Source of the DNA: Flammeovirgaceae bacterium
Lineage (GTDB): Bacteria > Bacteroidota > Bacteroidia > Cytophagales > Cyclobacteriaceae
Direction: 5' to 3'
Assembly (NCBI GenBank): GCA_027487845.1
Contig: JAIYCV010000006.1
Coordinates: 36,940 to 100,939 of the forward strand
Length of the DNA: 64,000 nt
This document shows, in pieces, positions 3,793 through 20,010 of this stretch (the stretch's first letter is position 1; every line of letters starts with the position of its first letter). A model generated the notes under the pieces. That model saw nothing but the letters and a program-made list of their open reading frames with translations, was not told the origin of the DNA and did no database searches. Both the position numbers and the translations under genes were made by a program.

Positions 3793-4149
3793 CTAGGCGA
3801 TTCGCTTTTGCTCCTTTACTTCGATGCCTAATTTTCCGTCATAATTCACTACCCGAAACTCAAGGTTGGGTGCTTCGAGAAGCAAACTTTTCCCCGCTTC
3901 GTAGATAACACAGCCATCAATGGATGCGCTATTGTGCGTTATGTTAGCACTTTCGGCTGTACGAATATTTACCCTATTGCCTTTTAAAAAAAAGATGCCC
4001 GCATAACCGCTGACATATTCGGGAAAGATAAAATCATTACGATCGCTTGATCCAAATGTATTGGGGCCTTCCTTAAGCCAGAAAATAGTGTGGTCTGGGT
4101 GATTTATTTTTGTGGCGATTTTGTCTTTTTCTTCCATGATTGTAAACAA
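3793..4149 (-). CDS. Hypothetical protein resembling the N-terminal region of long DUF1684-family proteins
   Basis: FWLKEGPNTFGSSDRNDFIFP resembles the LFWLKEGENxFGS...NDxxFP segment I recall from Bacteroidota DUF1684 proteins. The DUF1684 core is absent. Confidence 0.5.
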   Translation of the reverse strand: MFTIMEEKDKIATKINHPDHTIFWLKEGPNTFGSSDRNDFIFPEYVSGYAGIFFLKGNRVNIRTAESANITHNSASIDGCVIYEAGKSLLLEAPNLEFRVVNYDGKLGIEVKEQKRIA

Positions 4150-4157
4150 CGAAATTT

Positions 4158-5633
4158 TTAGCTTGAAGATTTCGCAGAATTTAATTTACTGTGTTTTTTC
4201 CCAAATCTAAAGTAAATAATTAAGCCAATTCCTAACCAAACTAATAAACGAATCCAGGTATCTAGCGGCAATGACACCATCATGAGTAAACACGTGGCGA
4301 TCCCCATCAAGGGTACGAAAGGTACCCAAGGTGTTTTGAATGCGCGTGGCGCGTCTGGTTGTTGTTTTCGCAAGATGATGACACCAAGACAGACCATTAC
4401 AAACGCCAATAGCGTTCCAATGCTGGTCATTTCACCTACTACACGAATTGGGACAAGCCCGGCAAACAAACTGATAAAAACACACAAAATAATGTTGCCT
4501 TTGTAAGGCGTTTTGAACTTTGAATGAACTTCCGAAAACAGGCGCGGCAACAAGCCATCCTTGCTCATGGCAAAAAACACCCTCGACTGCCCTAGTAAAT
4601 CAACTAAAATTACGGATACGTATCCAATTATAATTGCTAAGATAATCGCCTGACCAAGCCAAGTGTAGGGTGTTTTGGCGATGGCAACTGCAACTGGTGC
4701 TGCGCTGTCTTTAAATTCGGTGTAATTGGCCATACCTGTCAGCACGTAGCTAAAAAGACCGAAAAGAAAGGTACAAATAATGAGTGACCCGAGAATGCCG
4801 ATGGGCATATTCCGTTTGGGGTTCTTTGTTTCTTGCGCCATGGCAGCAATGATGTCAAACCCAATAAAGACAAAGAACACTACGCCCGCACCGCGAAAGA
4901 TACCGCTCCAGCCATATTCACCAAACGTGCCTGTATTCTCAGGAATGTAGGGCACATAGTTATCAGGATTAATATAGCTCCAGCCAATGCCAATAAACAC
5001 CAGTACAACAGAAATTTTAATGGCAACAATGATACTGGTAAAAACAGCCGATCCCTTAATGCCTCTGATAATAACGAGTGTGATGAACACGATAATTAGC
5101 ACCGCGGGTAAGTTAAAAATACCGTTTACCAAAGTGCCATCATGCAGGGTTATTTTTTCGAACGGTGAAGCAACAAGTTGAGGAGGAAGATAGATACCAT
5201 AGTTAGCCAGAAAGCGTACTAAGTACTGCGACCAACTAATAGCTACCGTGGCAGCGCCTACGGAGTATTCCAGAACCAAATCCCAACCGATAATCCACGC
5301 AAAAAATTCGCCAAGCGTAGCATACGAATAAGTGTAGGCACTTCCGGCTACTGGAACGAGCGAGGCAAATTCAGCATAACACAACGCACTGAAGGCGCAT
5401 CCTACAGCAGCCACAAGAAACGATAAGGTTACCGCAGGCCCCGCGTTGTTGGCAGCGGCAATTCCCGTTAGCGAAAAAAGGCCAGCACCAATAATAACAC
5501 CGATGCCCATGGTAATAAGACTAAAACCATTAAGGCTGCGTTTTAGTGTATGCCCTCCTGTTTCTTCTGCTTCTATTTTTAAAAGAGCTAATGATTTTTT
5601 TAGCATAGATTGCCGGGTAAAAAAGTCCTGCAA
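4158..5633 (-). CDS. APC-family (cationic amino acid transporter-like) permease
   Basis: LKRSL...GIGVIIGAGLF, AGPAVTLSF, ALCYAEFASLVPVAGSAYTYSY, FIGFD and ETKNPKRNMPIGI motifs. Confidence 0.93.
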   Translation of the reverse strand: MQDFFTRQSMLKKSLALLKIEAEETGGHTLKRSLNGFSLITMGIGVIIGAGLFSLTGIAAANNAGPAVTLSFLVAAVGCAFSALCYAEFASLVPVAGSAYTYSYATLGEFFAWIIGWDLVLEYSVGAATVAISWSQYLVRFLANYGIYLPPQLVASPFEKITLHDGTLVNGIFNLPAVLIIVFITLVIIRGIKGSAVFTSIIVAIKISVVLVFIGIGWSYINPDNYVPYIPENTGTFGEYGWSGIFRGAGVVFFVFIGFDIIAAMAQETKNPKRNMPIGILGSLIICTFLFGLFSYVLTGMANYTEFKDSAAPVAVAIAKTPYTWLGQAIILAIIIGYVSVILVDLLGQSRVFFAMSKDGLLPRLFSEVHSKFKTPYKGNIILCVFISLFAGLVPIRVVGEMTSIGTLLAFVMVCLGVIILRKQQPDAPRAFKTPWVPFVPLMGIATCLLMMVSLPLDTWIRLLVWLGIGLIIYFRFGKKHSKLNSAKSSS

Positions 5634-5731
5634 AGAAAAGGTAATTTCCCATTAATCTATTCACACAATAGACTATTTAAACTATTATTTATCTTTCATA
5701 AAAAGCACTATATTTCTTTCTTAAGAAACAC

Positions 5732-6508
5732 TTGAAATATATGGATTACAAAAATGCGTTTGATCTGAGTAATAAAGTAGCCTTGATAACAGGGGCAAGC
5801 AAAGGAATAGGCGAGGCCATTGCTCGTTTTTATGCTGCTTTTGGGGCCACGGTAATTATCAATTCGCGGAAGCAAGATGAACTTAATGTAGTGGCTGAAA
5901 GTATAAAAAGCGCGGGCGGCAACTGCGTGGGCATGGCCGCTAATGCAGGAGACCTTGATGCGTGCAAACAACTGGTGGATAAGATAGTTCAGGTCTATGG
6001 AGGCATTGACATTCTCGTAAATAATGCCGCTTCTAATCCGGTGTTTGGCCCCATTACAAACTCCGAGGAGTGGGCATTTGATAAGATCATGAGTGTAAAT
6101 GTAAAAGCGCCTTTTGCGCTTTCAAACCTAGTGTATCCAAGCATGAAAGAGCGAGGGCGAGGTTCAATTATAAACGTTAGTTCCATTGCTGGGCTTACGC
6201 CCGATCACGGCTTGGGGTTGTATTCCGTTTCTAAAGCTGCATTGAATATGCTTACAAAAGTGCAAGCGAAAGAATGGGGAAAAGAGGGCATCCGTGTAAA
6301 TGCTATTTGCCCCGGACTAATAAAGACTAAATTTTCTGAAGCACTTTGGAGCAATGAGGAGTTGTTAAAGCGGTTGGTGAAGCAACTGCCTATTGCCAGA
6401 ATGGGCACCGTAGAAGAAATAGCTGGGCTAGCGTTGTATTTGGCTTCCGATGTTTCGGGCTATTGCACGGGAGCGGTCTTTACAGCTGATGGTGGAACAA
6501 CTCTGTAA
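5732..6508 (+). CDS. SDR family oxidoreductase (DHRS4-like)
   Basis: TGASKGIG nucleotide-binding motif, NNAA, catalytic YSVSK and GIRVNAICPG. Confidence 0.93.
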   Translation: MKYMDYKNAFDLSNKVALITGASKGIGEAIARFYAAFGATVIINSRKQDELNVVAESIKSAGGNCVGMAANAGDLDACKQLVDKIVQVYGGIDILVNNAASNPVFGPITNSEEWAFDKIMSVNVKAPFALSNLVYPSMKERGRGSIINVSSIAGLTPDHGLGLYSVSKAALNMLTKVQAKEWGKEGIRVNAICPGLIKTKFSEALWSNEELLKRLVKQLPIARMGTVEEIAGLALYLASDVSGYCTGAVFTADGGTTL

Positions 6509-6598
6509 TTATCGGGGAGCAAAGTAAATCGTTAAGTCACGGTAATTCTTGTAATTTTAAACGATGCTACGACCAACATCCCGATATACTGACGGGGA

Positions 6599-6685
6599 GT
6601 TCTAAAAATTCAATTATTTCCTTTTACCACCTCATTCCTGTTTCCCCGGAGGGGAAATGATAAGCGGAAATTGAATTTTTAGAAC
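6599..6685. repeat. Nested inverted repeat: 17-bp perfect outer arms enclosing an inner hairpin (MITE/REP-like)
   Basis: GTTCTAAAAATTCAATT (6599-6615) is the reverse complement of AATTGAATTTTTAGAAC (6669-6685). The inner hairpin is TTTCCCC-GGA-GGGGAAA (6641-6657). Confidence 0.7.
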
Positions 6686-6742
6686 CCCTCTGAACTTGCG
6701 GACTCGTTCGTGATTTTTTAATATTTTGAATTATTATTTCTT

Positions 6743-7801
6743 ATGTTGTTTCGGTTTTTCCTTGTTCTCTTGCTGCTCACTTGTTATAATTTTTTGTTAG
6801 CGCAGCCGCGGTCCTTTCAAAGGGAGCCACTGATCGAAAAAATAACACTTTATTATGACGGTGCTGCTGAACTTACCTCTCCCGATAAAGCCAGCGTAAA
6901 GCGCATTGTTGAAATGAATCTAGACGCAATGGTCTTCCACGGAGTATATCAGGATTTTGATCTCAACGACAACTTAATTACGGAAGGTTATTTTCATGAA
7001 GGACATAAGCAGGGATTGAGAAACGAATATTTTAAGGATCGATCCTTAAAATCAACCATTGATTTTTCTGGAGATGATTTCGTTATCTGGCAACTAAAAA
7101 GTGAATTAAAACAAGATTTAGTAGTAAACGGGACTGGCAAGTTCACGCTTCCTTTCTTTTATGGCACGGGAACTACGTTGCAACCACGATGGAAGCAAGG
7201 AAAAGTGGAGGGAGAATTTCAATTTGGTAAGCGGATTGGCAAATGGCATTATTATGACTTAGGCAATGCCAAGTTGGACGAGGAAGAGTATGACAAAGGA
7301 AAATTCACAAACAGATGGCACTATGAAAATGGAGATTCTGTCCAGTTGAATTACCCTAAAACGATTTATTTTTCGCTTAGCAGTCTCATTGAAGAAGTTT
7401 TCAAATTCGATTCACAAACCTACTTTAACCTAACTAAGTGTTTTTCAGAGCGTGTAAGTTATCCATCAACGTTTAACCGGGCTGCTACTTTTGCTGGCGG
7501 TTTAAAACGACTGCTCCTTTTAATAGCCCAGCGCGTGCCAGTTCCTGAAAATTCACAATTGGTGATTCGCATTTCAATTAACGAGAATGGGATTGTTACG
7601 AGCACTTCCGTTGAGCAAGGGGTATCTAGGCAAATGGCTGCTGCTGTGGAAGTAATAAAAAGTGTTGAACTCAAGTTTTTCCCTGCCATTAGAAAAGGTA
7701 AGCCCTATTCCTCTGAGCTCTACTTGCCAATCTACGGGGGGGTAGAAGGAATAAAACTTATTGAAGCGTTGCCTTATGACTTTATTCAGCCTGACAACTA
7801 A
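6743..7801 (+). CDS. Exported protein with MORN-variant-like repeats and a C-terminal TonB_C-like domain
   Basis: Signal peptide; EGYFHEGHKQG and GEFQFGKRIGKWHYY repeats; C-terminal ATFAGG...ISINENGIV...FFPAIRKGKP...LYLPI resembles TonB_C. Confidence 0.65.
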   Translation: MLFRFFLVLLLLTCYNFLLAQPRSFQREPLIEKITLYYDGAAELTSPDKASVKRIVEMNLDAMVFHGVYQDFDLNDNLITEGYFHEGHKQGLRNEYFKDRSLKSTIDFSGDDFVIWQLKSELKQDLVVNGTGKFTLPFFYGTGTTLQPRWKQGKVEGEFQFGKRIGKWHYYDLGNAKLDEEEYDKGKFTNRWHYENGDSVQLNYPKTIYFSLSSLIEEVFKFDSQTYFNLTKCFSERVSYPSTFNRAATFAGGLKRLLLLIAQRVPVPENSQLVIRISINENGIVTSTSVEQGVSRQMAAAVEVIKSVELKFFPAIRKGKPYSSELYLPIYGGVEGIKLIEALPYDFIQPDN

Positions 7802-8448
7802 CTAAATTTCACCAGGCCTTGGCGAATTGCTTCTATGGCCATGCCCGTTCTGCTTTGCACCCTAAACTTGGTGAAAAGAATTTGCCGATATCCATCGGTG
7901 GTACGTTCAGAAATTCCCATTCGTATTGCGATTTCTTTGTAAGGCATATCGCTACAGGCGAATTGTAAGAATTCCATTTCTTTTTCGGTAAGAGTTATCG
8001 TGTTACCTTTTACAACAAGGGGGGTGATAAGTTTTTTAAAACTGAGCCGCTCGGCTTCCGAGTTGTAATAGCCCGTTTCATAAACCTGACGCAAGGCTAT
8101 TTCAAGTTCATCGGGGTTGGTGTCTTTAAATAGATAGCAACAGCAACCTGCCCGCAGCATGTTAATGATTGTTCGCTCTTCATTACTTACCGAGAGAGCG
8201 ACTAATTTTATGGTGGGATGATTTTTTGAGAGCCATTTGGTAGTTTGAATCCCATCCATTACGGGCATGGCAACATCAACCAACAAAATATCGGGCAATG
8301 CCTCACCAGAACTAATTTTTTCTTGCAAGTCCACACCATTGCTGGCTTCAAGTGTAACCTTAAAATCTGCAAAACTGTTTAAAAGTAGACTTAGCGACTT
8401 GCTAAATAGTTTATGGTCATCCACAATACCAATGGAAATGATCTGCAT
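7798..8448 (-). CDS. NarL/LuxR-family response regulator
   Basis: Receiver domain (IVDDH, DILLVDVAMPVMDG) plus LuxR HTH (LTEKEMEFLQ...YKEIA..MGISERT). Confidence 0.95.
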   Translation of the reverse strand: MQIISIGIVDDHKLFSKSLSLLLNSFADFKVTLEASNGVDLQEKISSGEALPDILLVDVAMPVMDGIQTTKWLSKNHPTIKLVALSVSNEERTIINMLRAGCCCYLFKDTNPDELEIALRQVYETGYYNSEAERLSFKKLITPLVVKGNTITLTEKEMEFLQFACSDMPYKEIAIRMGISERTTDGYRQILFTKFRVQSRTGMAIEAIRQGLVKFS

Positions 8449-8542
8449 ACCAGAGCTGAATTTTTATTTTAGATCACACAAGATACTAGAAACTCACGTC
8501 CAGAAAAATTTTTTCACGCTAGTCTGTTAACTAATTAGTAGT

Positions 8543-9319
8543 TCAAACAGGAATTTTTATATACACGGTAGTTCCACCTTGTTGGGAACGCCACTCTACC
8601 ACACCCGATAATATGGACACTCGGTGCTTAATATTGGTAATGCCAATTCCATGCTTTGATGAAAGTTCGGGGTCGAACCCAATTCCATTGTCATTTATAA
8701 AGATCGCCAACGATGTTTGCAAATCGTCAATGACAATATCAAAATGAGTGGCTACTGCGTGCTTAATGGCATTTTGAAGGCACTCCTGTATAATGCGAAA
8801 TAGGATTAGTTGTTTATCAACAGAAAGGTATAATTCTTCCGGATGCTTCAAAGAAGCCACAAACTCTTTGGAGGCATTTATTCGGTTTATTTCATTTTGA
8901 AGGTTTTCGATCAAGCTAAACTGAGCGAGCCATTCTTTGTTAAAAGATTTGCTCAAGGCCCTTAATTCGTTTATAGCAATGCCAAGCGTATGGTCGGCTT
9001 CTTCCAATGTTTCTTTAGAATTTGGGAGTGTTCTTTTGCTTAGCCCAACTAGAAATTTGGAACTGCTTAAAAGCTGGCCGATGTTATCGTGCAACTCTTT
9101 GCTGATGTGATCCATTGTTTTCTCTTGCTCCTCTATTCTGGCTTTTAATATTTCTGCTTGAAATCTACTTTCCATTTCCTGTTTTTCCAGCCGCATCTTT
9201 AATTGCCGCTTTGCGTAGACTTGGAACAAAACGACCACCCCAATGGCCATCAACAAAAAGAAGGCTGAAGCTGCCACCACAATAAATACCTCTTCTAGTG
9301 ATTGTTCCATCATAAGCAA
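8543..9319 (-). CDS. Sensor histidine kinase (HisKA_3), single N-terminal TM, no evident sensor domain
   Basis: ISKELHDNIGQLLS H-box, ECLQNAIKHA N-box, DNGIGFD and GIGITNI G-boxes. One hydrophobic segment at about aa 11-35. Confidence 0.93.
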   Translation of the reverse strand: MLMMEQSLEEVFIVVAASAFFLLMAIGVVVLFQVYAKRQLKMRLEKQEMESRFQAEILKARIEEQEKTMDHISKELHDNIGQLLSSSKFLVGLSKRTLPNSKETLEEADHTLGIAINELRALSKSFNKEWLAQFSLIENLQNEINRINASKEFVASLKHPEELYLSVDKQLILFRIIQECLQNAIKHAVATHFDIVIDDLQTSLAIFINDNGIGFDPELSSKHGIGITNIKHRVSILSGVVEWRSQQGGTTVYIKIPV

Positions 9320-9389
9320 AAAATTGCACCAAGGTAATGACCAAACTGGGAAAAGACCAACCTCACCGAGACCTCTTGGCTTTCTATGG

Positions 9390-10085
9390 TTAAAATATTC
9401 TCGGGTGTTTTTTACGCCAGGTGATCCAAAGTATAGCGGAACAAATCATAAGCGAACTAATTAAGAGCAGAATATTGTGGCCATTCCACAAATTCATAAG
9501 AAGGTAGCGGTTAGAATCTGTGTAGTGGTCGGCTTCTTGAATTTTTTTTGTAAGATATCCATACGTTAAGAAGACAATGAAGGAACCACTATGGTAAAGC
9601 AGTTGGGCGGCTACAAACCAAAAATCAAAATTATGTGATAGTGGTTCATCTGTAACATTTTTTAGTGTTTGATACATGAAAAAAAATACCATTACCACAA
9701 TACAAAAAGAAGTAAGTACATACCCCAAGCTATCAAAAGCATTGGGGTTGTAATCAAGAAAGTAATAACCTATGTAGTAACAGACATTCAGGGCTACAAA
9801 AAATACTACCGTTAACCGATGCCATTTACCTTTCAGCCTGGTGTAAAAATAGAAACTCATTACAAGCGAAGTTAGGAGGCTCATTAATCGGTAATCGTCA
9901 ATATTGTTTTCTCCTCGATGTAGCAAATTCGCCTTTATCATGAGCAGACAGCCCAAAAAATAGTACCCTATTAATATTTTTACGCGGACACTTTTTTCTG
10001 ACCGAGCATGGTAAATCAAGAAAAGGACGAGCAAAAGAAAACTGGATGGCTCAATATTGAAAAAGACATATTTAATGAAATTCAT
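9390..10085 (-). CDS. Uncharacterised seven-TM membrane protein
   Basis: 231 aa with seven hydrophobic segments by inspection, co-oriented with the kinase and regulator. Confidence 0.75.
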   Translation of the reverse strand: MNFIKYVFFNIEPSSFLLLVLFLIYHARSEKSVRVKILIGYYFLGCLLMIKANLLHRGENNIDDYRLMSLLTSLVMSFYFYTRLKGKWHRLTVVFFVALNVCYYIGYYFLDYNPNAFDSLGYVLTSFCIVVMVFFFMYQTLKNVTDEPLSHNFDFWFVAAQLLYHSGSFIVFLTYGYLTKKIQEADHYTDSNRYLLMNLWNGHNILLLISSLMICSAILWITWRKKHPRIF

Positions 10086-10137
10086 TAGGAGTTTTTTAGT
10101 ATGAGTTAATTCATCATTGAGCCGTTCAAAACCCTCT

Positions 10138-10395
10138 TTATTTACCGATACAAGGAGGGCATGGTCCTCCCTTTACCGACTTGATGCCACTACGCAAACC
10201 GCCCTTTGCAATTTTACCTGTAGCTGTGGCAATAATTCGCATAATACCTACTTCTTCACCACTGCTGGTAGTGCCTGTTTCTATGTAGGCGGTAAAGGAA
10301 ATAATCGATCCTTTATCAATGATTTTTTTTAAGTCCTCTGACTTGAAATCAAATTCAAGAGCAGTTTTCTTCTTTGGTGTAGGTTTTTTTGCCAT
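10138..10395 (-). CDS. Small basic protein (85 aa) with C-terminal GG-PCPPC-IGK motif
   Basis: Clean ORF with an A-rich leader, first gene of the co-oriented cassette. C-terminus verified by hand: TCG GTA AAG GGA GGA CCA TGC CCT CCT TGT ATC GGT AAA TAA. Confidence 0.7.
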   Translation of the reverse strand: MAKKPTPKKKTALEFDFKSEDLKKIIDKGSIISFTAYIETGTTSSGEEVGIMRIIATATGKIAKGGLRSGIKSVKGGPCPPCIGK

Positions 10396-10465
10396 AATTT
10401 TTAACGATTAAAGGTTTGTGTTTTTTTAGACGGTTACAAATCTCCGAAATATTCTAATACCATCG

Positions 10466-10556
10466 TACCGTGATTTTCCACGGGTGTATACCGTGGTTTT
10501 CCACGGGTAACCATACCGTGGAAAATACGGGGTCGATACCGTGGAAAAACACGGTT
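10466..10556. promoter_or_regulatory. Four-copy palindromic array (CCGTGG-N4-CCACGG-like), candidate response-regulator binding sites
   Basis: Copies start at 10466 (TACCGTGATTTTCCACGGGT), 10489 (TACCGTGGTTTTCCACGGGT), 10514 (TACCGTGGAAAATACGGGGT) and 10537 (TACCGTGGAAAAACACGGTT). The period is 23/25/23 bp, and the array lies between divergent genes. Confidence 0.75.
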
Positions 10557-10654
10557 GACAAGCTCGTGCCACTTTGCTCACCTTTGACTCATTAATTTTT
10601 TCACACCCAGCCGATGGGCTGGATTGAAAAAAATAACCCCAAAAATTACCCCTT

Positions 10655-11464
10655 ATGGCACATAAATTAACACGTTTTGGCTGGCAACCTGATCTGCCCG
10701 ACTACCGAGATTTAGTATTTGCAGCCTCCCGCACCATGTTGCGTAAGCTTCCCACGAAAGTGGACTTAACTAATTTATGCCCGCCTGTATATAATCAAGA
10801 TTGGTTGGGGAGCTGCACCGCCAACGCCATTGGAGCAGCATTTCAATTTGGGCAAATGAAACAGAACGCCTCGAAAGCGTTTATGCCCTCCCGCTTATTC
10901 ATCTATTATAACGAGCGCGTAATCGAAAATACGGTAAGCATAGACAATGGTGCCCAATTGCGCACCGGCATTAAAACAGTGAACAAGCTGGGGGTTTGCC
11001 CGGAGGCCATGCATCCATACAAACCTTTTGAATTTAAAAAGAAGCCAGCTAAGAAATGTTTCGAGGAAGCGCTCAACCATCAGGTACTGAGCTATCACCG
11101 TGTGAAGCGCAACCTGAGCCAACTAAAAAGTTGCCTGGCCGAAGGCTATCCCTTTGTCTTTGGGTTTACCACCTACGAATCGTTTGAGAGCGATGAGGTA
11201 AAGGCCTCAGGCAAGCTGAATATGCCTGAACGAGGTGAGGACAGAGGAGACGGCCATGCGGTAATGGCAGTAGGCTATAATGAAACCAGCAAGCGATTTA
11301 TTGTGCGCAACAGCTATGGCGAAGAGTGGGGCAAGAGGGGATATTTTACCATGCCCTATGAGTATCTGTTAAACGAAAACCTGAGTGATGACTTCTGGAC
11401 AATTAGGGTGGTAGAGTTAGGAGAAGAAAAAGGAAAAGCTCGAAGTAAAACGAATAAGAAATAG
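10655..11464 (+). CDS. Papain-like cysteine peptidase (C1 family, xylellain-like)
   Basis: FGWQPDLPDYRD prosegment, NQDWLGSC (oxyanion Gln and catalytic Cys), GHAV (His) and RNSYG (Asn). No signal peptide. Confidence 0.92.
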   Translation: MAHKLTRFGWQPDLPDYRDLVFAASRTMLRKLPTKVDLTNLCPPVYNQDWLGSCTANAIGAAFQFGQMKQNASKAFMPSRLFIYYNERVIENTVSIDNGAQLRTGIKTVNKLGVCPEAMHPYKPFEFKKKPAKKCFEEALNHQVLSYHRVKRNLSQLKSCLAEGYPFVFGFTTYESFESDEVKASGKLNMPERGEDRGDGHAVMAVGYNETSKRFIVRNSYGEEWGKRGYFTMPYEYLLNENLSDDFWTIRVVELGEEKGKARSKTNKK

Positions 11465-11531
11465 CCTTCGGCAAGGCACAGTTAAATATACGGTGAATTG
11501 CTCAGGTCAATAAAGATAGGGTTTAGGTTAA

Positions 11532-11579
11532 GCTGCTGCTTCGCGGGGCCGCCCCACATACGGCCCTGCAAGTGGTGGC
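11532..11579 (+). other. Long GC-rich hairpin with several G-U pairs (possible structured RNA or terminator)
   Basis: GCTGCTGCTT pairs with AAGTGGTGGC using 4 G-U pairs, and GGGGCCG pairs with CGGCCCT around a 9-nt loop. Confidence 0.45.
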
Positions 11580-11587
11580 GAATAGAG

Positions 11588-11650
11588 GTGAGACGGGAGA
11601 CGTAAGATAATAGACATAAGACGCGAGATTTGAGACATGAGACTTGAGAT
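11588..11650. repeat. Nine degenerate heptamer repeats (consensus NNGAGAY)
   Basis: GTGAGAC GGGAGAC GTAAGAT AATAGAC ATAAGAC GCGAGAT TTGAGAC ATGAGAC TTGAGAT. Confidence 0.8.
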
Positions 11651-11659
11651 ACGTCTCAA

Positions 11660-11744
11660 AGGCGTCTGACACCTCAAAGGTGTCTTGACGCCTGAACAGG
11701 ATGAGACTCTAATCACGTCATCGCGAGGAACGAAGCGATCTGCA
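11660..11744. repeat. REP-like composite palindrome module, copy 1
   Basis: AGGCGTCTGACACCTCAAAGGTGTCTTGACGCCT hairpin (11660-11693), followed by GTCATCGCGAGGAACGAAGCGATCTGCA (11717-11744). Confidence 0.7.
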
Positions 11745-11778
11745 TTAGAACTAGTTAGTAAGAACCAAATAAAGGAAA

Positions 11779-11886
11779 ATGAATATGGACAAAACAAAAC
11801 CACAGGATAAGTACACGCGGTTTGTAGCGATTGCCCTGGGGGTCTTTATAGCGTTGCTGGTGCTATTAACAGTGTTGCAAAATTAG
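11779..11886 (+). CDS. Putative 35-aa single-TM small protein (below the ORF-track cutoff)
   Basis: MNMDKTKPQDKYTRFVAIALGVFIALLVLLTVLQN: a charged N-terminus plus a 19-aa hydrophobic stretch, preceded by an A-rich leader (AAAGGAAA). Confidence 0.5.
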   Translation: MNMDKTKPQDKYTRFVAIALGVFIALLVLLTVLQN

Positions 11887-11900
11887 TGTAAGAGTATCTG

Positions 11901-11994
11901 GGCGTCTGACAACTTCAAGGTGTCCTCACGCCTAAAAATGATTTGAGAACCGAAGTACTTCATCGCGTGGGAGGAACGACCGAAGCGATCTGCA
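11901..11994. repeat. REP-like composite palindrome module, copy 2 (diverged)
   Basis: GGCGTCTGACAACTTCAAGGTGTCCTCACGCCT (11901-11933), followed by TTCATCGCGTGGGAGGAACGACCGAAGCGATCTGCA (11959-11994). Confidence 0.65.
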
Positions 11995-12039
11995 GTTGAA
12001 AAGTACTTAATATGAATAGATAACTAAAATGATATAAAT

Positions 12040-12975
12040 ATGCCACGACAAACCATTATCGACACAGCCGCTTCGCAAAACGGAACAAAAGAAAACCCGC
12101 CCAACACCAACAAAACCAAGTACGGAGAATGGTATGGCATGAACGGAGTGCATTGGTGCGCCATCTTTGTAAGCTGGGTGTACAATGAAGCAGGGCATCC
12201 GCTCGGCACCATCGATTCCCCGAAAGGCTATCACTATTGCCCGTCTGCCTATAACTTCTGGAAGAGGAACAACCGACTAACCAAAGACCCCCAACCGGGC
12301 GACATTGTACTATACGATTGGGAAGGCGATGGCCTCAGCAACCATACTGGTATATTTGTGGCATGGGTAAAACCGGGGGAAACCTTCAAAGCATGGGAAG
12401 GCAACACCTCCCTTACCAACGATAGCGATGGCGGCCAGGTAATGCTGCGCACACGCTTTGTCAAGTTAGTGCAGGCGTTTGTAAACCCTGGCGTTTTTGA
12501 AGGTGCCCTACAACCCATTACAGGCATACTTAAAAGAGGCGACAAAGGCGCAGGCGTGGCCGCCATTCAAAAACAACTCTTCGATTTAAAATACGAGGGC
12601 GTTACCGTAGATGGCGATTTTGGTGCTACTACAGAGAAACTCATCAAGCAATTTCAGCAAGAGCATGGCCTTGCGGTAACAGGCATAGTAGATGCCATTG
12701 TAGAAGGCGCCTTGCAGGCAGAACTCAATAAACCAAAAGTTGCCGACACAAAACTTACCACAGGCGTTTACTTGAAGAAAGGCAACTCGGGTGTTGCGGT
12801 GGTGGCATTGCAAAAAGCATTGAATAGAAATGGCGCACGCCCTTCCCTTACAGAAGACGGAGTGTTTGGCACCGACACCGTGGTGGCACTGAAAGCCTAC
12901 CAAACAAGCAAGGGTATAACTGCTGATGGCATTGCAGGACCAGAAAGTTTTAAGGCGTTAGGACTGAAAATATAA
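12040..12975 (+). CDS. CHAP-domain peptidoglycan hydrolase with two C-terminal PG_binding_1 domains
   Basis: N-terminal WCAIFVSW (Cys) and NHTGI (His), EGNT; two repeats LKRGDKG..V..IQ..L...VDGDFG..T and LKKGNSG..V..LQ..L...DGVFG..T. No signal peptide seen. Confidence 0.88.
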   Translation: MPRQTIIDTAASQNGTKENPPNTNKTKYGEWYGMNGVHWCAIFVSWVYNEAGHPLGTIDSPKGYHYCPSAYNFWKRNNRLTKDPQPGDIVLYDWEGDGLSNHTGIFVAWVKPGETFKAWEGNTSLTNDSDGGQVMLRTRFVKLVQAFVNPGVFEGALQPITGILKRGDKGAGVAAIQKQLFDLKYEGVTVDGDFGATTEKLIKQFQQEHGLAVTGIVDAIVEGALQAELNKPKVADTKLTTGVYLKKGNSGVAVVALQKALNRNGARPSLTEDGVFGTDTVVALKAYQTSKGITADGIAGPESFKALGLKI

Positions 12976-12985
12976 CTTTAACAAG

Positions 12986-14020
12986 TTGCCGATGAAACTA
13001 TCTATTAATAAGGTTTTTCTACCACCAAAGCAACAAAAGAATTTATGCTCCGCGTACCTCCGCGAACTCTGCGGTTTAATCTTGCTAATTTTCTGCTGCT
13101 CAATAACAGGACACGCTAGCTGCTCAGTAAAAGCAGACTCTGCAGCGGCTGCTCCCAATGCCTACACCATTCTGGAGGTGAAAGAAATGCACTTGCAAAA
13201 AGATACGATACGTTTGGGCGAGTTTATGGCTATAAAATTTAAACCGGGAGATAGCATTGAAAAGATCACCACATTATTGTTAGATGGCATTGAAGTCAAA
13301 ACCAAACCCTGGAAAACCAGCCCCAGCACCAACACCATTTTTTACAAAGTAGATGATGAAATGCAAAAACTTGCCGCTCAGTTTTTGGTAAGCGAAGCAC
13401 TCAACAACAATTACATCAAAGTTTCTATTTCTGTAAGCGATGGCAAGCAGTTCTCCAACTCCACTGTAGCGATGTATTTCGCCATTAAGCAAAAAATAAA
13501 AAATGCTTGGATATGGATTGTGCTGCTGTTAATACCCTTGCTGTTTTTCATCTACCTAAGTTTAAAACACAATATATTAAAAGACGATGGTAATGTTTAC
13601 TATAGCCTGGGCAGAACGCAACTCTTTTTCTGGACTGTTCTATTCTGTTTCTGCTACCTCTACCTTTGGCTTAAGACGGGCGCCTTGCCGGACATTACCC
13701 ATACAGTACTCATTCTTTTAGGCGTAAGCGTAGGCACTACCGCTGCTGCCAAAGTTATTGAGAACAACCCAGCAGTGCCGCCACCAGCAGTTGCCGACCA
13801 GCCCGTAAGTGAAGGCTGGCTCATAGACATACTAAGCGACAGCAAAAGTATAAGCGTGCATCGGTTTCAGAATGTAGCGTTCACCCTTGTGTATGGAGTT
13901 ATTTTTATACAGCAAGTGGGCTACGCCTTGGTGTTCCCCGAATTTGATACCAACGCTCTGCTACTAATGGGCATAAGCTCTGGCACCTATGCAGGGTTAA
14001 AAATTACGGAAGCAAAATGA
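12986..14020 (+). CDS. Membrane protein: exported N-terminal domain plus internally duplicated C-terminal TM module
   Basis: Signal-like segment and a TM at about aa 172-192, then SLGRTQLFFWTV...LPDITHTVLILLGVSVGT repeated as SVHRFQNVAFTL...FPEFDTNALLLMGISSGT. Confidence 0.7.
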   Translation: MPMKLSINKVFLPPKQQKNLCSAYLRELCGLILLIFCCSITGHASCSVKADSAAAAPNAYTILEVKEMHLQKDTIRLGEFMAIKFKPGDSIEKITTLLLDGIEVKTKPWKTSPSTNTIFYKVDDEMQKLAAQFLVSEALNNNYIKVSISVSDGKQFSNSTVAMYFAIKQKIKNAWIWIVLLLIPLLFFIYLSLKHNILKDDGNVYYSLGRTQLFFWTVLFCFCYLYLWLKTGALPDITHTVLILLGVSVGTTAAAKVIENNPAVPPPAVADQPVSEGWLIDILSDSKSISVHRFQNVAFTLVYGVIFIQQVGYALVFPEFDTNALLLMGISSGTYAGLKITEAK

Positions 14021-14091
14021 AGTAACTAAAATTAAAAAAACGGAGTAAGCCGAAAATCCGGAGAAGAGTAGGCAAAGAAATAAAAATCTTT

Positions 14092-16080
14092 ATGAAAAAG
14101 GCTTTAATCATTTTATTGGTTTTACCAGCACTTTCTTTCGCGCAAGTAGCTTCACCACCTACTTTGATAGCTGGTTTATCCGGATTGTCTGTTGACAAAG
14201 GAAATTTAGATGTTGCTTTGATCTCTGAAATTGTAACTGAGAAACAGGCAGAGTTGAAAAAAGAACTGATTAAACGAGTTTTCTTTGATAAACTAAAATC
14301 AGAAAACTACGTGACTTGGGAGTTTGCATACAATTCACTCGAAATTCTTCTAAACTCACAAAGTAAGCCAAACATTCAAAAAGAGCTTTTGGAGTATGCT
14401 TCCAATGCCACGCTGGTATACAGTTTTACCGAGGCATATCTTCAGGTTTCAAAGAAGTTTGGAAACTCTGCATTGGACGGCCTAATCGAGCTTTGGGATA
14501 AAAATTCAAAATTAAAAGACTGCTTTGATTATCCGCCAAAGGATTGCTCGGAACTCAAAGATTTGAGTTTGATTCTTCCACACCTTATTCTTTCCTGCGA
14601 TGATTGCGGTTCAGCTAAAAAGACTTCAACGAATTTGAATAATGTTCTTATTGATATGACTTATGACATTTTAAGAAACGATAAGACACTTAAAAGTCTT
14701 GGTTTTTTTAAAGGACAATTTCCTTTGGGGGAAACCTACTACCAGCTGAATAGCCAATATTGGAAAAATCGAGATAATGTCAAGGTGGACGCATTGTATA
14801 CAAGAATGAAAAAAGAACTAAGCACATTGATTGAATACTATTACGTTGCAAAAGCAGCAGTCAATAACGGTGTTAATGAACTGGAAAGATTAATAACCTT
14901 TGATTCTGCAAATACTGCAAATCAGTTACTTGTCATTAATGGAAATCTCAAAGATCTAGAGACAGATTTAGTGGGCATCTCCAAAAGCATTTCTTCAAGC
15001 CCTACCAAGGAAAGTAATCTTTCCGAAAGGATCTCGGAGACTTACCTAGCTTTTAAGGATTTTCAGAAAAGGGGAAATGAACGGTACCGAGTTGAAGACT
15101 TGTACTATGCTGATCAGGTCACACTTCCATTGATTATCAAATTAACAAGCGAATATGGATTGCCAAAAAAATATCTAGATGCAGCGCTGGGGTTGAGAGA
15201 GATTATACTCTCAAATCTATTGAAACAAGCTTACAGTGACTTTAGTAAAAAATTAAAAGAGGGAAATACCAACCAGGACACTTCGATAAAAAATGTTTTT
15301 AGTATTTACAGACTACAAAACTACAAGTCATTTATTGAATTGCTGGATAAATTTAGCAAACTCGACAAGGCAGAAACCTATCAATTTATTTTAGGAGAAC
15401 TAAAAGACCTAAGCAAAATTTTCGAAAAATCTGACCCAACACTTTATGTCATGGTGTCAAGTCTATCTGATTTTTTGAAAAAATTTACCGTTTTTGATAA
15501 AGAGAAAAACGCTATTACGATGGATGTGGAGGAGGTGATTTCCCAGCTTTACACGCAATATGAAGCACAAACTAATAGATGGCTACAAGTATATTTTTCA
15601 GTTGGGCTCAATCAAACGTTCAACAGTTCAAATTTAACAGATGCTGCCGGAGGCAATGTTGGTTTTGCGGCTGAAAAGTTGGGTTTTAAAATTATCCCAA
15701 ATGCCTGGAATGTCAAGAAGATTAGGGCACAACAATACGAAAAGTTTTTTGGACCAAAAGGTAAGGATCAAGGTTTTATCAATAAGACGCCATTCATATC
15801 AGACTTTCATTTCATCGCCTATGGGAGTGGCCTGCTCTATAATATTGTAAATGTGAAAACGGAAGAGAAATTTAATCGACCGCTTTTTGGCGTAGGATTT
15901 GGCCCTTCTTTTTTTAATAGTCTTGATTTACATGTTTTTGCGAATTGGACTTTCCCCACCGCTCAGCAAACACTCGCTTGGGATAAACCAATAACTGGTT
16001 TTTCTTTTGATATAAAAATCACTGAGTACTTATCACGGCTCAAGCAAAAGAAAAGTGCTAATAACTCTGCAAGCAAATAG
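14092..16080 (+). CDS. Exported hypothetical protein (662 aa), helical body and possible beta-rich C-terminus
   Basis: Signal peptide MKKALIILLVLPALSFAQ in a long AT-rich ORF. No family recognised. Confidence 0.75.
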   Translation: MKKALIILLVLPALSFAQVASPPTLIAGLSGLSVDKGNLDVALISEIVTEKQAELKKELIKRVFFDKLKSENYVTWEFAYNSLEILLNSQSKPNIQKELLEYASNATLVYSFTEAYLQVSKKFGNSALDGLIELWDKNSKLKDCFDYPPKDCSELKDLSLILPHLILSCDDCGSAKKTSTNLNNVLIDMTYDILRNDKTLKSLGFFKGQFPLGETYYQLNSQYWKNRDNVKVDALYTRMKKELSTLIEYYYVAKAAVNNGVNELERLITFDSANTANQLLVINGNLKDLETDLVGISKSISSSPTKESNLSERISETYLAFKDFQKRGNERYRVEDLYYADQVTLPLIIKLTSEYGLPKKYLDAALGLREIILSNLLKQAYSDFSKKLKEGNTNQDTSIKNVFSIYRLQNYKSFIELLDKFSKLDKAETYQFILGELKDLSKIFEKSDPTLYVMVSSLSDFLKKFTVFDKEKNAITMDVEEVISQLYTQYEAQTNRWLQVYFSVGLNQTFNSSNLTDAAGGNVGFAAEKLGFKIIPNAWNVKKIRAQQYEKFFGPKGKDQGFINKTPFISDFHFIAYGSGLLYNIVNVKTEEKFNRPLFGVGFGPSFFNSLDLHVFANWTFPTAQQTLAWDKPITGFSFDIKITEYLSRLKQKKSANNSASK

Positions 16081-16107
16081 CAACCAATAAGTCTTAATCG
16101 ATATCAG

Positions 16108-18414
16108 ATGACCCCCACACAACACATTCGTTACACCTTACTATCACTTTGGTTTTATGTTCCCAGCGTGATCACCATTTTGATTGGGTATTTTCTTCTC
16201 ACTAAACTTACGCAAGGTCAAGATGTGGTCATGCTGGTGGGGGAATGCAAGCTACCCGTACTTTTTACATCTGTTGGTGTGTTGCTATGGGCATTCTTCG
16301 TGTGGTATTGCAATCGGCTGATCGGCTATGAAAAGAATTTCAATGATCCCAAGTGGCCTGTTGATTATCTTTCATTGTTTCCACGCTTACTTGCTTACAA
16401 CACCTTTGTTACTGTGCAGGCAGCAATTGTGGCCTTGCCTTCGATAGGTTGCGACAATGCTTACTTTTTATGGGCATTTGTGATTCTGCACAACGGATAC
16501 TATTTCTTCTTAAACTTTGCATTCAAGGGCACTTCTATAACTAAAACAAAAATTGTTACTCTTCTGATCGCCATTGCGTACATGGCCTACCTTATTTCTC
16601 TTTGCTATATCCACAAAAATGGAGTTTTACATCAGAAACAATTGCCATTGGTGGCACTTTTATTATTTGCTCTGCAAATTTCAGTACTCTACTTTTTTAT
16701 AACGCGCAGAGCCAAACTCGACCATAAGGCACAAAAGTTAAAATATAAGCCAAACGCCATCGGTTATGTGAGGTTACTTTCTTGTAAAATTATAAAAGTA
16801 CCGAGGTGGTTCAGGGCAAATGAGCAGTTCACCTTCCTGATTTTTAATGTTATGGCAATCATAGCCATTGCTTTGTATTTCGTCATAACCAATAGCATTT
16901 GGGTGGCCAATGGGCTAGGGCCTCTACCAGTAGTCTTGTTGGCTTTTGGCATACTGACCGGGTTGGCCACTATTATTACCTATTTCTCGATGCGTGTAAA
17001 ATTCAATCTCTTTTTTGTGCTATACGTAGTCGCACTTCTTGCAGGGAATTTCTTTGAACCCTACTCAGTAAAACTTACTAAATCAAAAATACCCGAGTAT
17101 CAAAATCGTCCAGATTTAAAAATGTATTTAAAAAAATGGGTGGAAGATAAAAGCAGGAAAGCAAAAATTCAAAAACTTAATTCACCAAAATCATACCCAG
17201 TGTATTTAGTTTTAGCCGATGGTGGTGCTTCGCGTTCAGGTTACTGGGCTGCCAGCGTATTGGCCGCTTGGCAAAAAGAATCGCTTGCTGATTCAGCAAC
17301 AACAGGTACGCTGAACGATCACTTGCTGGTACTTTCAGGTGCCTCGGGTGGCAGTGTAGGCAATGCTGCTTTTTACGGACTTCTTAAATCAAATGAAAAT
17401 GATCCAAAAATTCTTGATCACGCGCGGGATTTCTTAGGCCAAGATTTTCTTACCTACACGATTGCGCATTATTTAGGTTCTGATTTAGCTGGCCATTTTA
17501 TTCCTGGCCTACGCGACCGTGCTACCGCTCTTAGTAACAATATGGATTATTGGTCAGCAGACACCAAAAATTTATTTCATAAAGATTTGAATGAAGTGTT
17601 TGACACGACAGGTCGGCTGCCCATTCTTTTCATCAACACCACGCGGTTAGAAGAAGGCACCCCAGCCGTGGTGAGTTCAATAAAATTAAAAGGCTCTGGC
17701 GAATTAAAAGGCTTTAGCGAACGGCTGGATGTATTGGGCTTGGTGGACTCTACGGCAGAAAGTGGAAAGGGCAACATCCAGCTAAGCACCGCGGCTGTGT
17801 TGGGTGCGCGTTTTCCCTATGTTTCGCCTGCAGGAAGCATTTCTTATAAAGTAACGAAAAAAGTGAAAGGTGAAAAAAAGACGGAAGAACGTCACCACTA
17901 CTTTGTGGATGGAGGATATTTTGATAACAGTGGCGCAGGAATAGTACACGAGATGATGCAGGAAATAGAAATCATTAGTAATACGGCTACCGATTCATGC
18001 TATAAAAAATTATTGAAAAAACTCTCCTTTCGCTTAATACACATTACAAACAGTCCCTATGGCGAAACTACCTTAAACCCAATCCATCCGCTCACTAACG
18101 ATTTGGCCGCGCCCTTGCTCACCGTGTTCAATACTTACGGCTCACAGACTACTGTAAATGACCAACGGTTGGAATCTTTTCTATATCGGATGAACCCACA
18201 CGACAACACTATCACAAATGTTAATCTATACCGAAAGGAGCGAAGGGACGAAAGCTATCCCATGAATTGGGTGATCAGCAAATACCGAAAGGACTTAATG
18301 GATGCGCGGGTGTCAGAGGTATTGAAATATGACTTGGGGAAATTTTTAATTAAAAAAAAAGCAATAAGACCAAGCCGAAAATCATTTAACCGAGTAAGCA
18401 CACAAATAAATTAA
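16108..18414 (+). CDS. Membrane-anchored patatin-like phospholipase
   Basis: About 8 N-terminal TMs, ADGGASRSG (oxyanion hole), SGASGGS (G-x-S-x-G nucleophile) and VDGGYFDNSG (DGG). Confidence 0.88.
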   Translation: MTPTQHIRYTLLSLWFYVPSVITILIGYFLLTKLTQGQDVVMLVGECKLPVLFTSVGVLLWAFFVWYCNRLIGYEKNFNDPKWPVDYLSLFPRLLAYNTFVTVQAAIVALPSIGCDNAYFLWAFVILHNGYYFFLNFAFKGTSITKTKIVTLLIAIAYMAYLISLCYIHKNGVLHQKQLPLVALLLFALQISVLYFFITRRAKLDHKAQKLKYKPNAIGYVRLLSCKIIKVPRWFRANEQFTFLIFNVMAIIAIALYFVITNSIWVANGLGPLPVVLLAFGILTGLATIITYFSMRVKFNLFFVLYVVALLAGNFFEPYSVKLTKSKIPEYQNRPDLKMYLKKWVEDKSRKAKIQKLNSPKSYPVYLVLADGGASRSGYWAASVLAAWQKESLADSATTGTLNDHLLVLSGASGGSVGNAAFYGLLKSNENDPKILDHARDFLGQDFLTYTIAHYLGSDLAGHFIPGLRDRATALSNNMDYWSADTKNLFHKDLNEVFDTTGRLPILFINTTRLEEGTPAVVSSIKLKGSGELKGFSERLDVLGLVDSTAESGKGNIQLSTAAVLGARFPYVSPAGSISYKVTKKVKGEKKTEERHHYFVDGGYFDNSGAGIVHEMMQEIEIISNTATDSCYKKLLKKLSFRLIHITNSPYGETTLNPIHPLTNDLAAPLLTVFNTYGSQTTVNDQRLESFLYRMNPHDNTITNVNLYRKERRDESYPMNWVISKYRKDLMDARVSEVLKYDLGKFLIKKKAIRPSRKSFNRVSTQIN

Positions 18415-18427
18415 TAAACCCAAAAAA

Positions 18428-18541
18428 ATGAGCTATCAAAACATCTCCTACAACTTGGTGCAAGCTGCGATCGATGCCGTGAAGGCCGCGCTTGGTACCA
18501 TATCAAGCCTTGCTTCTCGTCTTCATGAATCAACAGAATAA
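18428..18541 (+). pseudogene. Truncated remnant of a Bacteroidota hypothetical gene (MSYQNIS... family)
   Basis: MSYQNISYNLVQAAIDAVKAALGTI resembles N-termini of the form MPYQNIxAxLxxADIxAVKAAIxTI that I recall. The frame is lost after about 25 codons. Confidence 0.35.
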
Positions 18542-18754
18542 AAACAAACAACAATTAACCAATAACTGCCTGACACTTCAAAGTTTTCTGCCTCGTTTGC
18601 TTTTTTTATACCCATGGGAAAACATTGACAACCTCATCAAGAGTGATTTATCCCAGTGAGATTACTATTAAGACAGGAATGAAATAGCGATCATGTGATC
18701 TGATAAATTTTTTAATGATAAATCTATAAAAGCAAACTAAAAAACTCAATTATT

Positions 18755-19330
18755 ATGTACTACATAACTCTCGCCTTAGGAATATTTCTTGTTTTGTCTG
18801 GAATCATCGCATTGAAATTTGGTTGGCCATCTGTTAATGATATTCAACGGTTTGAAGGCTTGGGTATCAGATTGGAAATTTCGGTAGCTACCTTATTAAT
18901 TCTGTTAGGCTCGATTTGTATCCTCTCAAACTTAATCATTAACATATTCAATCAACAAAATAAAGATCAAGAAATCAGTAGAAAAAAAACAGAATATGAA
19001 ACAAAAAAAGATGAATACGAGATATTAATCTCTAATCTCAAGAATCAAAAGGTAACAGTTTTCATTGAACTTCCTATTGCCGATCAACCCTTGTATTATA
19101 ATTTTGATCTCAAAAAGCTCAATTTAACCTATGTGAAAGACTTAGATCCCAAACAGTTGCGAGCGGACACAATAAAGGGTTATGATGGCACCCAACTTTC
19201 ATTTGAGGTACAGGGGGTCAACCCTTATTCAACGATTAGAGACGTAATTTTATTTGATCCGATTAGCAATAAAAAATGGAGAAGCAATGAAGAGGTTCGG
19301 TTATTGATACCTAAAGTTAAGTTAAAATGA
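18755..19330 (+). CDS. Hypothetical membrane protein (2 N-terminal TMs, coiled-coil, soluble C-terminal domain)
   Basis: ORF track. AT-rich, and overlaps the next gene by ATGA. Confidence 0.7.
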   Translation: MYYITLALGIFLVLSGIIALKFGWPSVNDIQRFEGLGIRLEISVATLLILLGSICILSNLIINIFNQQNKDQEISRKKTEYETKKDEYEILISNLKNQKVTVFIELPIADQPLYYNFDLKKLNLTYVKDLDPKQLRADTIKGYDGTQLSFEVQGVNPYSTIRDVILFDPISNKKWRSNEEVRLLIPKVKLK

Positions 19331-19998
19331 AACCAAGATTTGTTATAACCCTAATCCTCTTACTTCTTTTTCTTATGGGGGAAGCGTTTTGCCAAGATAT
19401 CCAAACAGTGAACACGTCATCTGAATCTCGAAATGGTCGTTACAATTGGGAAGTTCATTTGCTGGCTAACCAAGAAACATTAAATTCAATTAAGTATGTT
19501 GAATATAAGCTTCATCCTACATTTGAAGTTCCTATTGTAAAAGTCTCTGATAAGGCGAGTAATTTTGAGCTTAAATCGAGCGGATGGGGTGAATTTAAAA
19601 TAGTTTTGAAAGTTGTTTTCAATGATGGCTCAGTCAAAGAATTAAATCATCAGCTTTCACTTGGTCAAGAAGGTCCGAATCTTCAAAACGGTAAACCTTC
19701 ATTAGAGGCAGATAAAATCATAATCAGAAACTTGTCTCAGCGAGTTGGAAGTAAATGGTGGAGTTGGACAGTTTACTTGTCTGGAAATGAAACTAAAATA
19801 AACTCGATTCGTTGTGTACGGTATATCCTACACCCTACTTTTTCAAAACCTATTCGGGAAATTTGTACAAAAGGAAATATTCATGATCAATATTTCCCTT
19901 TCAGCACTAGTGGCTGGGGTACTTTTAGAATCAAAATAAAAATCTTTTTTAAAAACGGAGAGACTCAAGATCTTTATCATGATTTGGTTTTTAATTGA
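19327..19998 (+). CDS. Secreted protein with two tandem prokaryotic YEATS-like domains
   Basis: Signal peptide; two repeats, W.VHL...VEYKLHPTF...SSGWGEF and W.VYL...VRYILHPTF...TSGWGTF. HPTF and GWGEF are YEATS signature motifs. Confidence 0.85.
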   Translation: MKPRFVITLILLLLFLMGEAFCQDIQTVNTSSESRNGRYNWEVHLLANQETLNSIKYVEYKLHPTFEVPIVKVSDKASNFELKSSGWGEFKIVLKVVFNDGSVKELNHQLSLGQEGPNLQNGKPSLEADKIIIRNLSQRVGSKWWSWTVYLSGNETKINSIRCVRYILHPTFSKPIREICTKGNIHDQYFPFSTSGWGTFRIKIKIFFKNGETQDLYHDLVFN

Positions 19999-20010
19999 TT
20001 ACTAAGCCTT

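Follow-up and report, generated by a model that had tools for sequence, protein, structure and literature searches.

Four phased palindromes between the divergent operons of a Bacteroidota two-component cassette: a probable operator array for the cassette's own response regulator

The window analysed here, a stretch of 64,000 nucleotides (C5:36940-100939) from a Bacteroidota genome of 4.55 Mb in 51 contigs with 40.6% G+C (G000), carries four quasi-palindromes of about 20 bp at 10466-10556, in the promoter region between two divergent operons. The minus-strand operon encodes a signalling cassette. Its first gene (10138-10395) codes for a small protein of 85 amino acids (aa), and the following genes for a 231-aa multi-pass membrane protein with seven transmembrane segments (7-TM; 9390-10085), presumed to be the sensor partner, a histidine kinase with HisKA_3 and HATPase_c domains and without a sensor domain (8543-9319; Pfam and NCBIfam matches), and a NarL/FixJ-type response regulator with a REC domain and a GerE helix-turn-helix domain (7798-8448; Pfam), the proposed binder of the array. 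The closest solved structures to this regulator were NarL and VraR, and residues D10, D11, D58, and K108 were invariant across eight aligned cassette regulators. The plus-strand operon, which we refer to as the output operon, begins with a gene for a papain-like protease (Peptidase_C1 by Pfam, also with a weak C39-like match; 10655-11464); among the other plus-strand products were a CHAP and PG-binding hydrolase, a membrane protein, a 662-aa protein, a patatin-like protein, and a pYEATS protein.

As the earlier note had described, two of the four units have T-rich and two have A-rich centres, and the array is mirror-symmetric (TTTT in units 1 and 2, AAAA in units 3 and 4). The unit is a palindrome of the form TACCGTGG-W4-CCACGGTA, with the GGAAAA-side arm being better conserved. 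Unit 1 (TACCGTGATTTTCCACGGGT, 10466-10485), with a T-tract centre, scored 31.0 bits against a position weight matrix (PWM) built from 12 units; it is the promoter-proximal site of the small-protein operon, with 38 nt between its centre and the G of the TTTG in the minus-strand -7 box. Unit 2 (TACCGTGGTTTTCCACGGGT, 10489-10508; T-tract, 32.9 bits) contains at 10491-10506 the perfect CCGTGG-TTTT-CCACGG (6-4-6) inverted repeat that had already been recognized. Unit 3 (TACCGTGGAAAATACGGGGT, 10514-10533; 29.1 bits) and unit 4 (TACCGTGGAAAAACACGGTT, 10537-10556; 28.6 bits) have A-tract centres, and unit 4 is the promoter-proximal site of the peptidase operon, its final bases overlapping the TTG of the -33 element. 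The centre-to-centre spacings of 23, 25, and 23 bp agreed with the period first given, although 23 bp corresponds to 2.2 helical turns rather than to the "about two" proposed with it. The distances to the small-protein gene start (71 bp from the array edge to 10395) and to the peptidase ATG (99 bp, to 10655) were as first noted.

The four phased palindromes are real and far beyond chance. The exact 12-mer TACCGTGGAAAA was observed six times in the 4.55-Mb genome versus 0.65 expected, and all six copies fell within three arrays, as did all seven matches to the 16-mer with at most two mismatches. With the PWM, the units themselves scored from 28.6 to 32.9 bits and the next best genome site scored 19.8 bits, a gap of 9 bits. 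The scan therefore did not return the genome-wide scatter, regardless of this two-component system, that the earlier note had set against a regulatory role; a motif present at only three loci is not a repetitive extragenic palindromic (REP)-type element. The three arrays (C5, in this window; C7:14875-14966; and C41:19127-19222) are near-identical and can be aligned over about 95 nt, and a conserved distal flank of about 25 nt and the 5' untranslated region (5'UTR) accompany the array in the distant copies. When these arrays were aligned with two more, at loci L048 and L032, the variable columns were the 3-4-nt linkers and the outer half of unit 1, all other unit positions being invariant. This pattern would be expected for protein-binding sites and points to selection on the units. 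Directly downstream of the C7 and C41 arrays, we found paralogous genes for a 146-aa and a 163-aa protein (MQENRISI...), respectively, instead of the C1 peptidase gene found at C5; this family is referred to below as the 160-aa protein.

The -33 TTG is a known element of Bacteroidetes sigma-A promoters, described in the Bacteroides promoter literature. The -7 box of these promoters, TAnnTTTG, spans -12 to -5 (PMC9723704). For the peptidase operon, the predicted -33 element is TTGAC (10555-10559, plus strand) and the predicted -7 box is CACCTTTG (10579-10586, plus strand), with a predicted start at about 10591; for the operon of the small protein, 7-TM protein, kinase, and regulator, the predicted -7 box is GAGATTTG, read on the minus strand (10437-10444), with a predicted start at about 10432. 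TTGAC directly follows the last unit in all three G000 arrays, in L032, L048, and L051, and in the G302 cassette described below, and the CACG(G)TTGAC junction was conserved in the alignment of the three G000 arrays. A TTG-N24/25-TTTG spacing was common to at least eight related promoters. A scan for E. coli-type sigma-70 promoters and terminators gave 3 promoter-like sites versus 2.9 expected and was uninformative for a Bacteroidetes genome.

To describe this geometry, we measured how far the G of the -7 TTTG lies from the midpoint of the proximal W4 tract, on 12 computed promoter sides and two more read by eye. On these predicted boxes the promoter grammar is strict: the proximal unit was centred 36-39.5 nt from the -7 G, and the output-side TTG started 7.5-8.5 nt past the centre. 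A distance of 37.5 nt was found at C41, C7, and L051, on each side of the G302 cassette, on the small-protein side of G349, and at the second G378 array, where the -7 box reads TTTA. The other values were 37.5-38 nt (G301 peptidase side), 38 nt (this window, small-protein side), 38.5 nt (third G302 promoter), 36 nt (G378 small-protein side), and 39.5 nt (this window, peptidase side; hand-counted). The small-protein side of G146, read by eye, likewise has a unit-TTG-N25-TTTG layout. Since the -7 box covers -12 to -5, these distances would place the proximal site at about -43 and the others near -66, -91, and -115. Most of the -7 boxes lack the initial TA of TAnnTTTG, which fits activator dependence. 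The small-protein-side and output-side geometries were equal in G000, G302, G378, and G349, again with predicted boxes. That the two sides of the array match speaks for bidirectional drive, which would entail autoregulation; the drive in both directions put forward in the earlier note thus gains support from comparison.

Using the 231-aa membrane protein as a query, we found seven further cassettes of like make-up (small protein, 7-TM protein, HisKA_3 kinase, GerE-type regulator), in G302, G301 (the L058 locus), G146, G378, G349, G266, and G213. The presence of similar arrays in orthologous cassettes, a check proposed at the outset, was observed throughout: all seven carry phased sites with GC-rich arms around a W4-5 tract at the corresponding position, the arms being specific to the cassette, and most share the promoter spacing. 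G302 has four direct ACGTGGTTTTCCCCGTA units (ACGTGG-TTTT-CCCCGT) abutting TTGAC toward genes for a 126-aa protein, a C1 peptidase, and a patatin; G301 has three CAGGGTTTTTCCT units (CAGGG-TTTTT-CCT) 22 bp apart; G146 has a mirrored pair, ACGGGTATTTTTCGGGGGT and ACCGGGGGAAAATACCCGT (CCGGGG-W4-CCCC type). Four CCGGGG-W4-CCCCC-type units were present in G378, three GGGG-AAATT-CCCG-type units in G349, and GGGTAAAA...TTTTACCC in G266 and G213. The orientation of the W tract was not conserved, with arrays being all-direct, 1+2, 3+1, or 2+2, so the mirror symmetry seen in this window is a local feature.

Within the regulators, the recognition-helix residues T-x-D-G-Y-R were invariant in the eight aligned sequences, and the next residue tracked the arms. 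It was E with CGGGG arms (G146, G378, and G349) and Q or A with CGTGG arms (G000 and G302), and S-P-K/R-T variants accompanied AGGG(T) arms (G301 and G266/G213). Outside the cassettes, extra arrays matched the variant of their own cassette in three genomes (G000, G302, and G378). The G302 motif was found at exactly three places: the cassette, upstream of the gene for a 161-aa homologue of the 160-aa protein (L051), and at a two-unit promoter facing a gene for a 207-aa protein. In this last case (L072 8578-8615), the operator has a TTG-N25-TTTG promoter, and the 207-aa gene, which has a weak TerB-like match, and the regulator gene point toward each other; two units thus seem to suffice for a regulon member. 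In G378, a second four-unit array lies 4 kb away, facing a patatin-like gene. A pattern search in G301 found no further array of its type beyond the cassette, and those in G349 and G146 gave only chance-like matches. A GTDB-wide scan for the central palindrome TTTTCCACGG-N6-13-CCGTGGAAAA returned 33 loci, of which 32 were unrelated terminator-like hairpins and only L032 was a true array. A BLAST search with the array against 300 genomes of the family gave chance-level matches only, and the four sampled genomes of the same genus gave none.

The locus is polymorphic between close genomes. By blastn, L058/G301 was 94.5% and 92.9% identical to positions 4037-7829 of the window and 88.8% identical to 11520-14073, and no nucleotide similarity to it was detected between, over 7830-11519, even at a word size of 7. 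This block, replaced en bloc, includes most of the regulator gene, the kinase, 7-TM, and small-protein genes, the array, and the peptidase gene. The G000 and L058 proteins were 42% (regulator), 32% (kinase), and 34% (peptidase) identical, versus 94% for the flanking CHAP hydrolase. The left breakpoint falls within the last 10 or so codons of the regulator gene, which puts the recognition helix inside the replaced part. On this comparison, all the components, from the regulator and kinase through the membrane partner, small protein, and operator to the peptidase, thus travel as a single allele. A second replaced segment (14074-20708) consists of cargo genes: here, those for the 662-aa protein, the patatin, a 191-aa protein, the pYEATS protein, and a 170-aa protein; in L058, those for 122-, 437-, 498-, 161-, and 278-aa proteins, a DUF5131 protein, and a 158-aa protein.

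Taken as a whole, the four units probably serve the cassette's own response regulator, of the NarL/LuxR type (7798-8448), as an upstream array of operator sites. The GerE-type regulator and its HisKA_3 kinase are encoded beside the sites, and the CCGTGG-N4-CCACGG half-sites form a 6-4-6 inverted repeat, as does the ComA site. The earlier note had named the adjacent LuxR-type regulator as the binder; this is supported indirectly, by the cassette-specific arms of the seven other cassettes and by the joint replacement of array and regulator, and is weakened by an orphan array at L032 (see below). We infer that this regulator binds the sites, that it does so cooperatively, and that the effect is activation and not repression. 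The sensor-less kinase would phosphorylate the regulator, and the phosphorylated dimers would bind each palindrome of about 20 bp. On each side, the outermost dimer would sit about 43 bp upstream of the predicted sigma-A promoter start, abutting the -33 TTG and touching RNA polymerase, and the inner dimers near -66, -91, and -115 would add affinity and stabilize the complex. Rightward activation would then drive the peptidase/CHAP/patatin operon, and leftward activation the small-protein/7-TM/kinase/regulator operon, amounting to autoregulation. The same regulator may also control the two further G000 promoters, where the array precedes the 160-aa gene heading variable cargo.

Several observations weigh against regulation of this kind. 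The association between helix and arms is based on eight cassettes only, the spacing of 23 bp is not an integral number of helical turns, the output-side -7-like box is degenerate in G378 (TTAG) and G349 (TTCG), and in the G301 cassette the proximal unit facing the small-protein side showed no matching -7 box. The proximal site also overlaps the -33 element at TTG, which is compatible with repression. The regulator could accordingly act as a repressor or roadblock, with the outer units lying over the -33 elements of both promoters and occupancy being relieved by phosphorylation or its loss; NarL-family regulators do repress at some promoters (PMC7419079). We consider this unlikely, because -7 boxes that mostly lack TA are typical of activator-dependent promoters, because two to four sites reach upstream to about -115 and not downstream across the start, and because a centre near -43 is a known NarL activation position. 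The discordant finding is that G301 retains an intact G000-type array (L032), although its own cassette uses CAGGGTTTTTCCT and the best regulator match there is only 41% identical. L032 shares 94% identity with the C41 array plus 5'UTR, and the C41 stretch with the 163-aa gene has no counterpart there. Because the 160-aa gene behind it has been deleted, L032 is explicable as an orphan left after a cassette swap, but it would fit a binder encoded elsewhere equally well, and it is the main reason why we call regulator binding probable and go no further. A transcription factor encoded outside the cassette, with the adjacent regulator a bystander, would also suit the location of two of the three G000 arrays, far from the cassette, and a LytTR two-component system (L001 5478-7120) does lie 2.7 kb from the C7 array. 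This possibility appears quite unlikely, however: the motif variant tracks the cassette allele in all eight cassettes and the extra arrays in three genomes match their own cassette, array and regulator have been replaced together inside conserved flanks, and no LytTR gene was found near the C5 or C41 array. LytTR-type sites (9-bp direct repeats about 21 bp apart) were rejected as a candidate, the units being palindromes and the C7 array being the only one with a LytTR gene nearby.

Another conceivable binder is the 160-aa helical protein itself, autoregulating its own gene, which lies immediately downstream of the array at C7, C41, L048, and L051 and inside the array-controlled operon in L058. 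This is very improbable: the protein gave no Pfam or NCBIfam match, no DNA-binding fold, and no PDB match, the operon in this window contains no family member, the second G378 array drives a patatin-like gene, and distant homologues occur without arrays. Finally, the array might not be a protein operator at all, and its strong dyad symmetry, the distal flank and 5'UTR that travel with it, and a sub-threshold Rfam match could suggest a repeat of the REP type or a miniature inverted-repeat transposable element (MITE), a recombination or inversion site, or a structured RNA. In a scan of 9000-12500, no Rfam family came near its gathering score; the match was to MIR396, at 24.5 bits versus a gathering score of 80. 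We give this explanation hardly any credence, since there are three copies only, each abutting a promoter, and no adjacent recombinase; moreover, the predicted -7 boxes lie outside the array, which should therefore not be transcribed. A dispersed REP/MITE repeat was rejected on the count of three arrays and on the PWM scores (28.6 versus 19.8 bits), and an invertible promoter on the position of the predicted boxes and the lack of a recombinase among the neighbouring genes. An iteron-type origin was also considered and rejected.

Among known systems, NarL is close to the operator array proposed here. Both combine a NarL/FixJ-family regulator with a HisKA_3-type kinase, with inverted heptamer or hexamer repeats as the known or presumed dimer sites, and at the ogt and yeaR promoters the NarL sites stand in tandem, with one beside the -35 element. 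The outer arm TACCCGT of the array resembles the heptamer consensus of NarL, TACYYMT. Unlike the 7-2-7 sites of NarL, those of the array have 6-4-6 (or 8-4-8) arms around W4, and up to four of them, spaced by 23 bp, serve two divergent Bacteroidetes -33/-7 promoters; the regulon covers three loci, whereas NarL is a global regulator. A precedent for the proposed mechanism is E. coli ogt, where NarL activates from two positions (site centres at -44.5 and -77.5), with one site directly against the -35 element (PMC7419079). The ComQXPA system of Bacillus subtilis shares the GerE-type regulator, the HisKA_3-type kinase, and a 6-N4-6 site. Its locus is polymorphic between strains, defining pherotypes in which variation affects the signal, the enzyme that modifies it, and the receptor portion of the kinase, and ComA and its boxes are constant. 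In the present cassettes, in contrast, the DNA-binding domain of the regulator and the operator vary too, and there are no ComQ- or ComX-like genes. The canonical ComA site is TTGCGG-N4-CCGCAA, followed by further degenerate downstream elements (PMC4797271).

The LiaFSR and VraTSR systems of cell-envelope stress likewise have a single operon for three components: a HisKA_3 kinase lacking a sensor domain, a NarL-type regulator, and an accessory membrane protein. These operons are autoregulated. The present cassette differs in its membrane partner, an unrelated multi-pass protein without a Pfam match, in its additional small G-C-P-x-P-P-C protein, in its outputs (lytic and conflict-type enzymes), and in operator sequence and site number. 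LiaR, which oligomerizes on phosphorylation, binds at a primary and a secondary site (PMC7191749). With the lux box of LuxR, the array shares a palindrome of about 20 bp beside the -35 element of a promoter and a divergent arrangement; activator dependence and positive feedback would be further likenesses. The lux box is centred near -42.5. LuxR proper, however, is a one-component receptor of acyl-homoserine lactones with a single box, unlike the predicted phospho-activated regulator with four boxes.

Tandem response-regulator sites driving divergent promoters are ordinary, and the system would be an autoregulated NarL-family regulon of known type. What is notable is that regulator and operator appear to diversify together inside a swappable block. 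With a regulator-operator pair that is replaceable between very close genomes, the Bacteroidota would have a naturally occurring set of two-component/promoter pairs that look orthogonal. With three arrays in 4.55 Mb, the regulon is tiny and sharply delimited, and it covers lytic enzymes and conflict-type cargo. More tentatively, the array may form the DNA terminus of a signalling channel private to the strain, whose specificity would be exchanged from input to promoter as one block; portable operator-promoters would wire cargo (TIR, SLATT, patatin, CHAP) to the channel and would be orphaned and decay after an allele swap, as at L032. In the pherotype systems known to us, the regulator and its boxes stay constant, and a channel of this kind would diversify further. 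This raises the question of how far down a signalling pathway strain-specific specificity groups reach. The arrays might also be a source of insulated inducible promoters for genetic work in Bacteroidota.

The small protein was 35% identical to its G302 counterpart, and the 7-TM protein 44%; neither belongs to a Pfam or NCBIfam family. In the small proteins of seven cassettes, a C-terminal G-C-P-x-P-P-C/G motif was conserved, with x and the tail being variable; counterparts with this motif were found at L072, L080, L081, L082, L083, and L084, and the G301/L058 cassette has an unrelated 201-aa protein at this position. The quorum-sensing circuit named in the earlier note is an assumption. The shared motif and the presence of the peptidase within the replaced block invite a processing hypothesis; no signal peptide, exporter, or export route was identified for the small protein.

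In the predicted 5'UTR of the peptidase gene (10595-10634), we observed a hairpin with 18-nt arms, ATTTTTTCACACCCAGCC and GGCTGGATTGAAAAAAAT, that are 78% complementary, followed at 10629-10652 by a direct repeat (AAAAATAACCCC and AAAAATTACCCC). Downstream of the operon, genes of conflict-system type encode a tandem pYEATS protein (19327-19998), a DUF488 fusion (22267-23151), and a HipA-like kinase (25350-26378).

The 160-aa family (146-165 aa) is all-helical and was found in Bacteroidota, Ignavibacteria, and Calditrichia. In G000, members are encoded at L001 9337-9777 (C7), L002 10125-10616 (C41), and C22:37155-37592, and the homologues are P0001-P0120; in L058, a member lies within the peptidase operon. 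The protein was modelled with confidence (predicted local distance difference test score of 88.9) as all-helical; the model had no fold match in the PDB, and a DNA-binding role is unsupported. The distant homologues at L053, L055, and L057 had no such arrays upstream. Members head variable cargo, with TIR/ThsB_TIR/TPR-S genes in L048 and a SLATT (DUF4231) gene on C41. On C7, transposase/integrase fragments directly follow the 146-aa gene (L001 7587-8754), and the cargo there therefore seems to have been replaced by an insertion sequence element. Moreover, the 163-aa gene is followed by a repeat element of about 240 nt, itself containing GCTTTTTACTCGGC-like repeats, that has further copies in other parts of the genome. 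The copies, 81-85% identical to one another, were located at C41:19850-20089, C4:65170-65407, and C51:156-393 in G000, as well as at L032 4884-5114 and L048 6587-6722.

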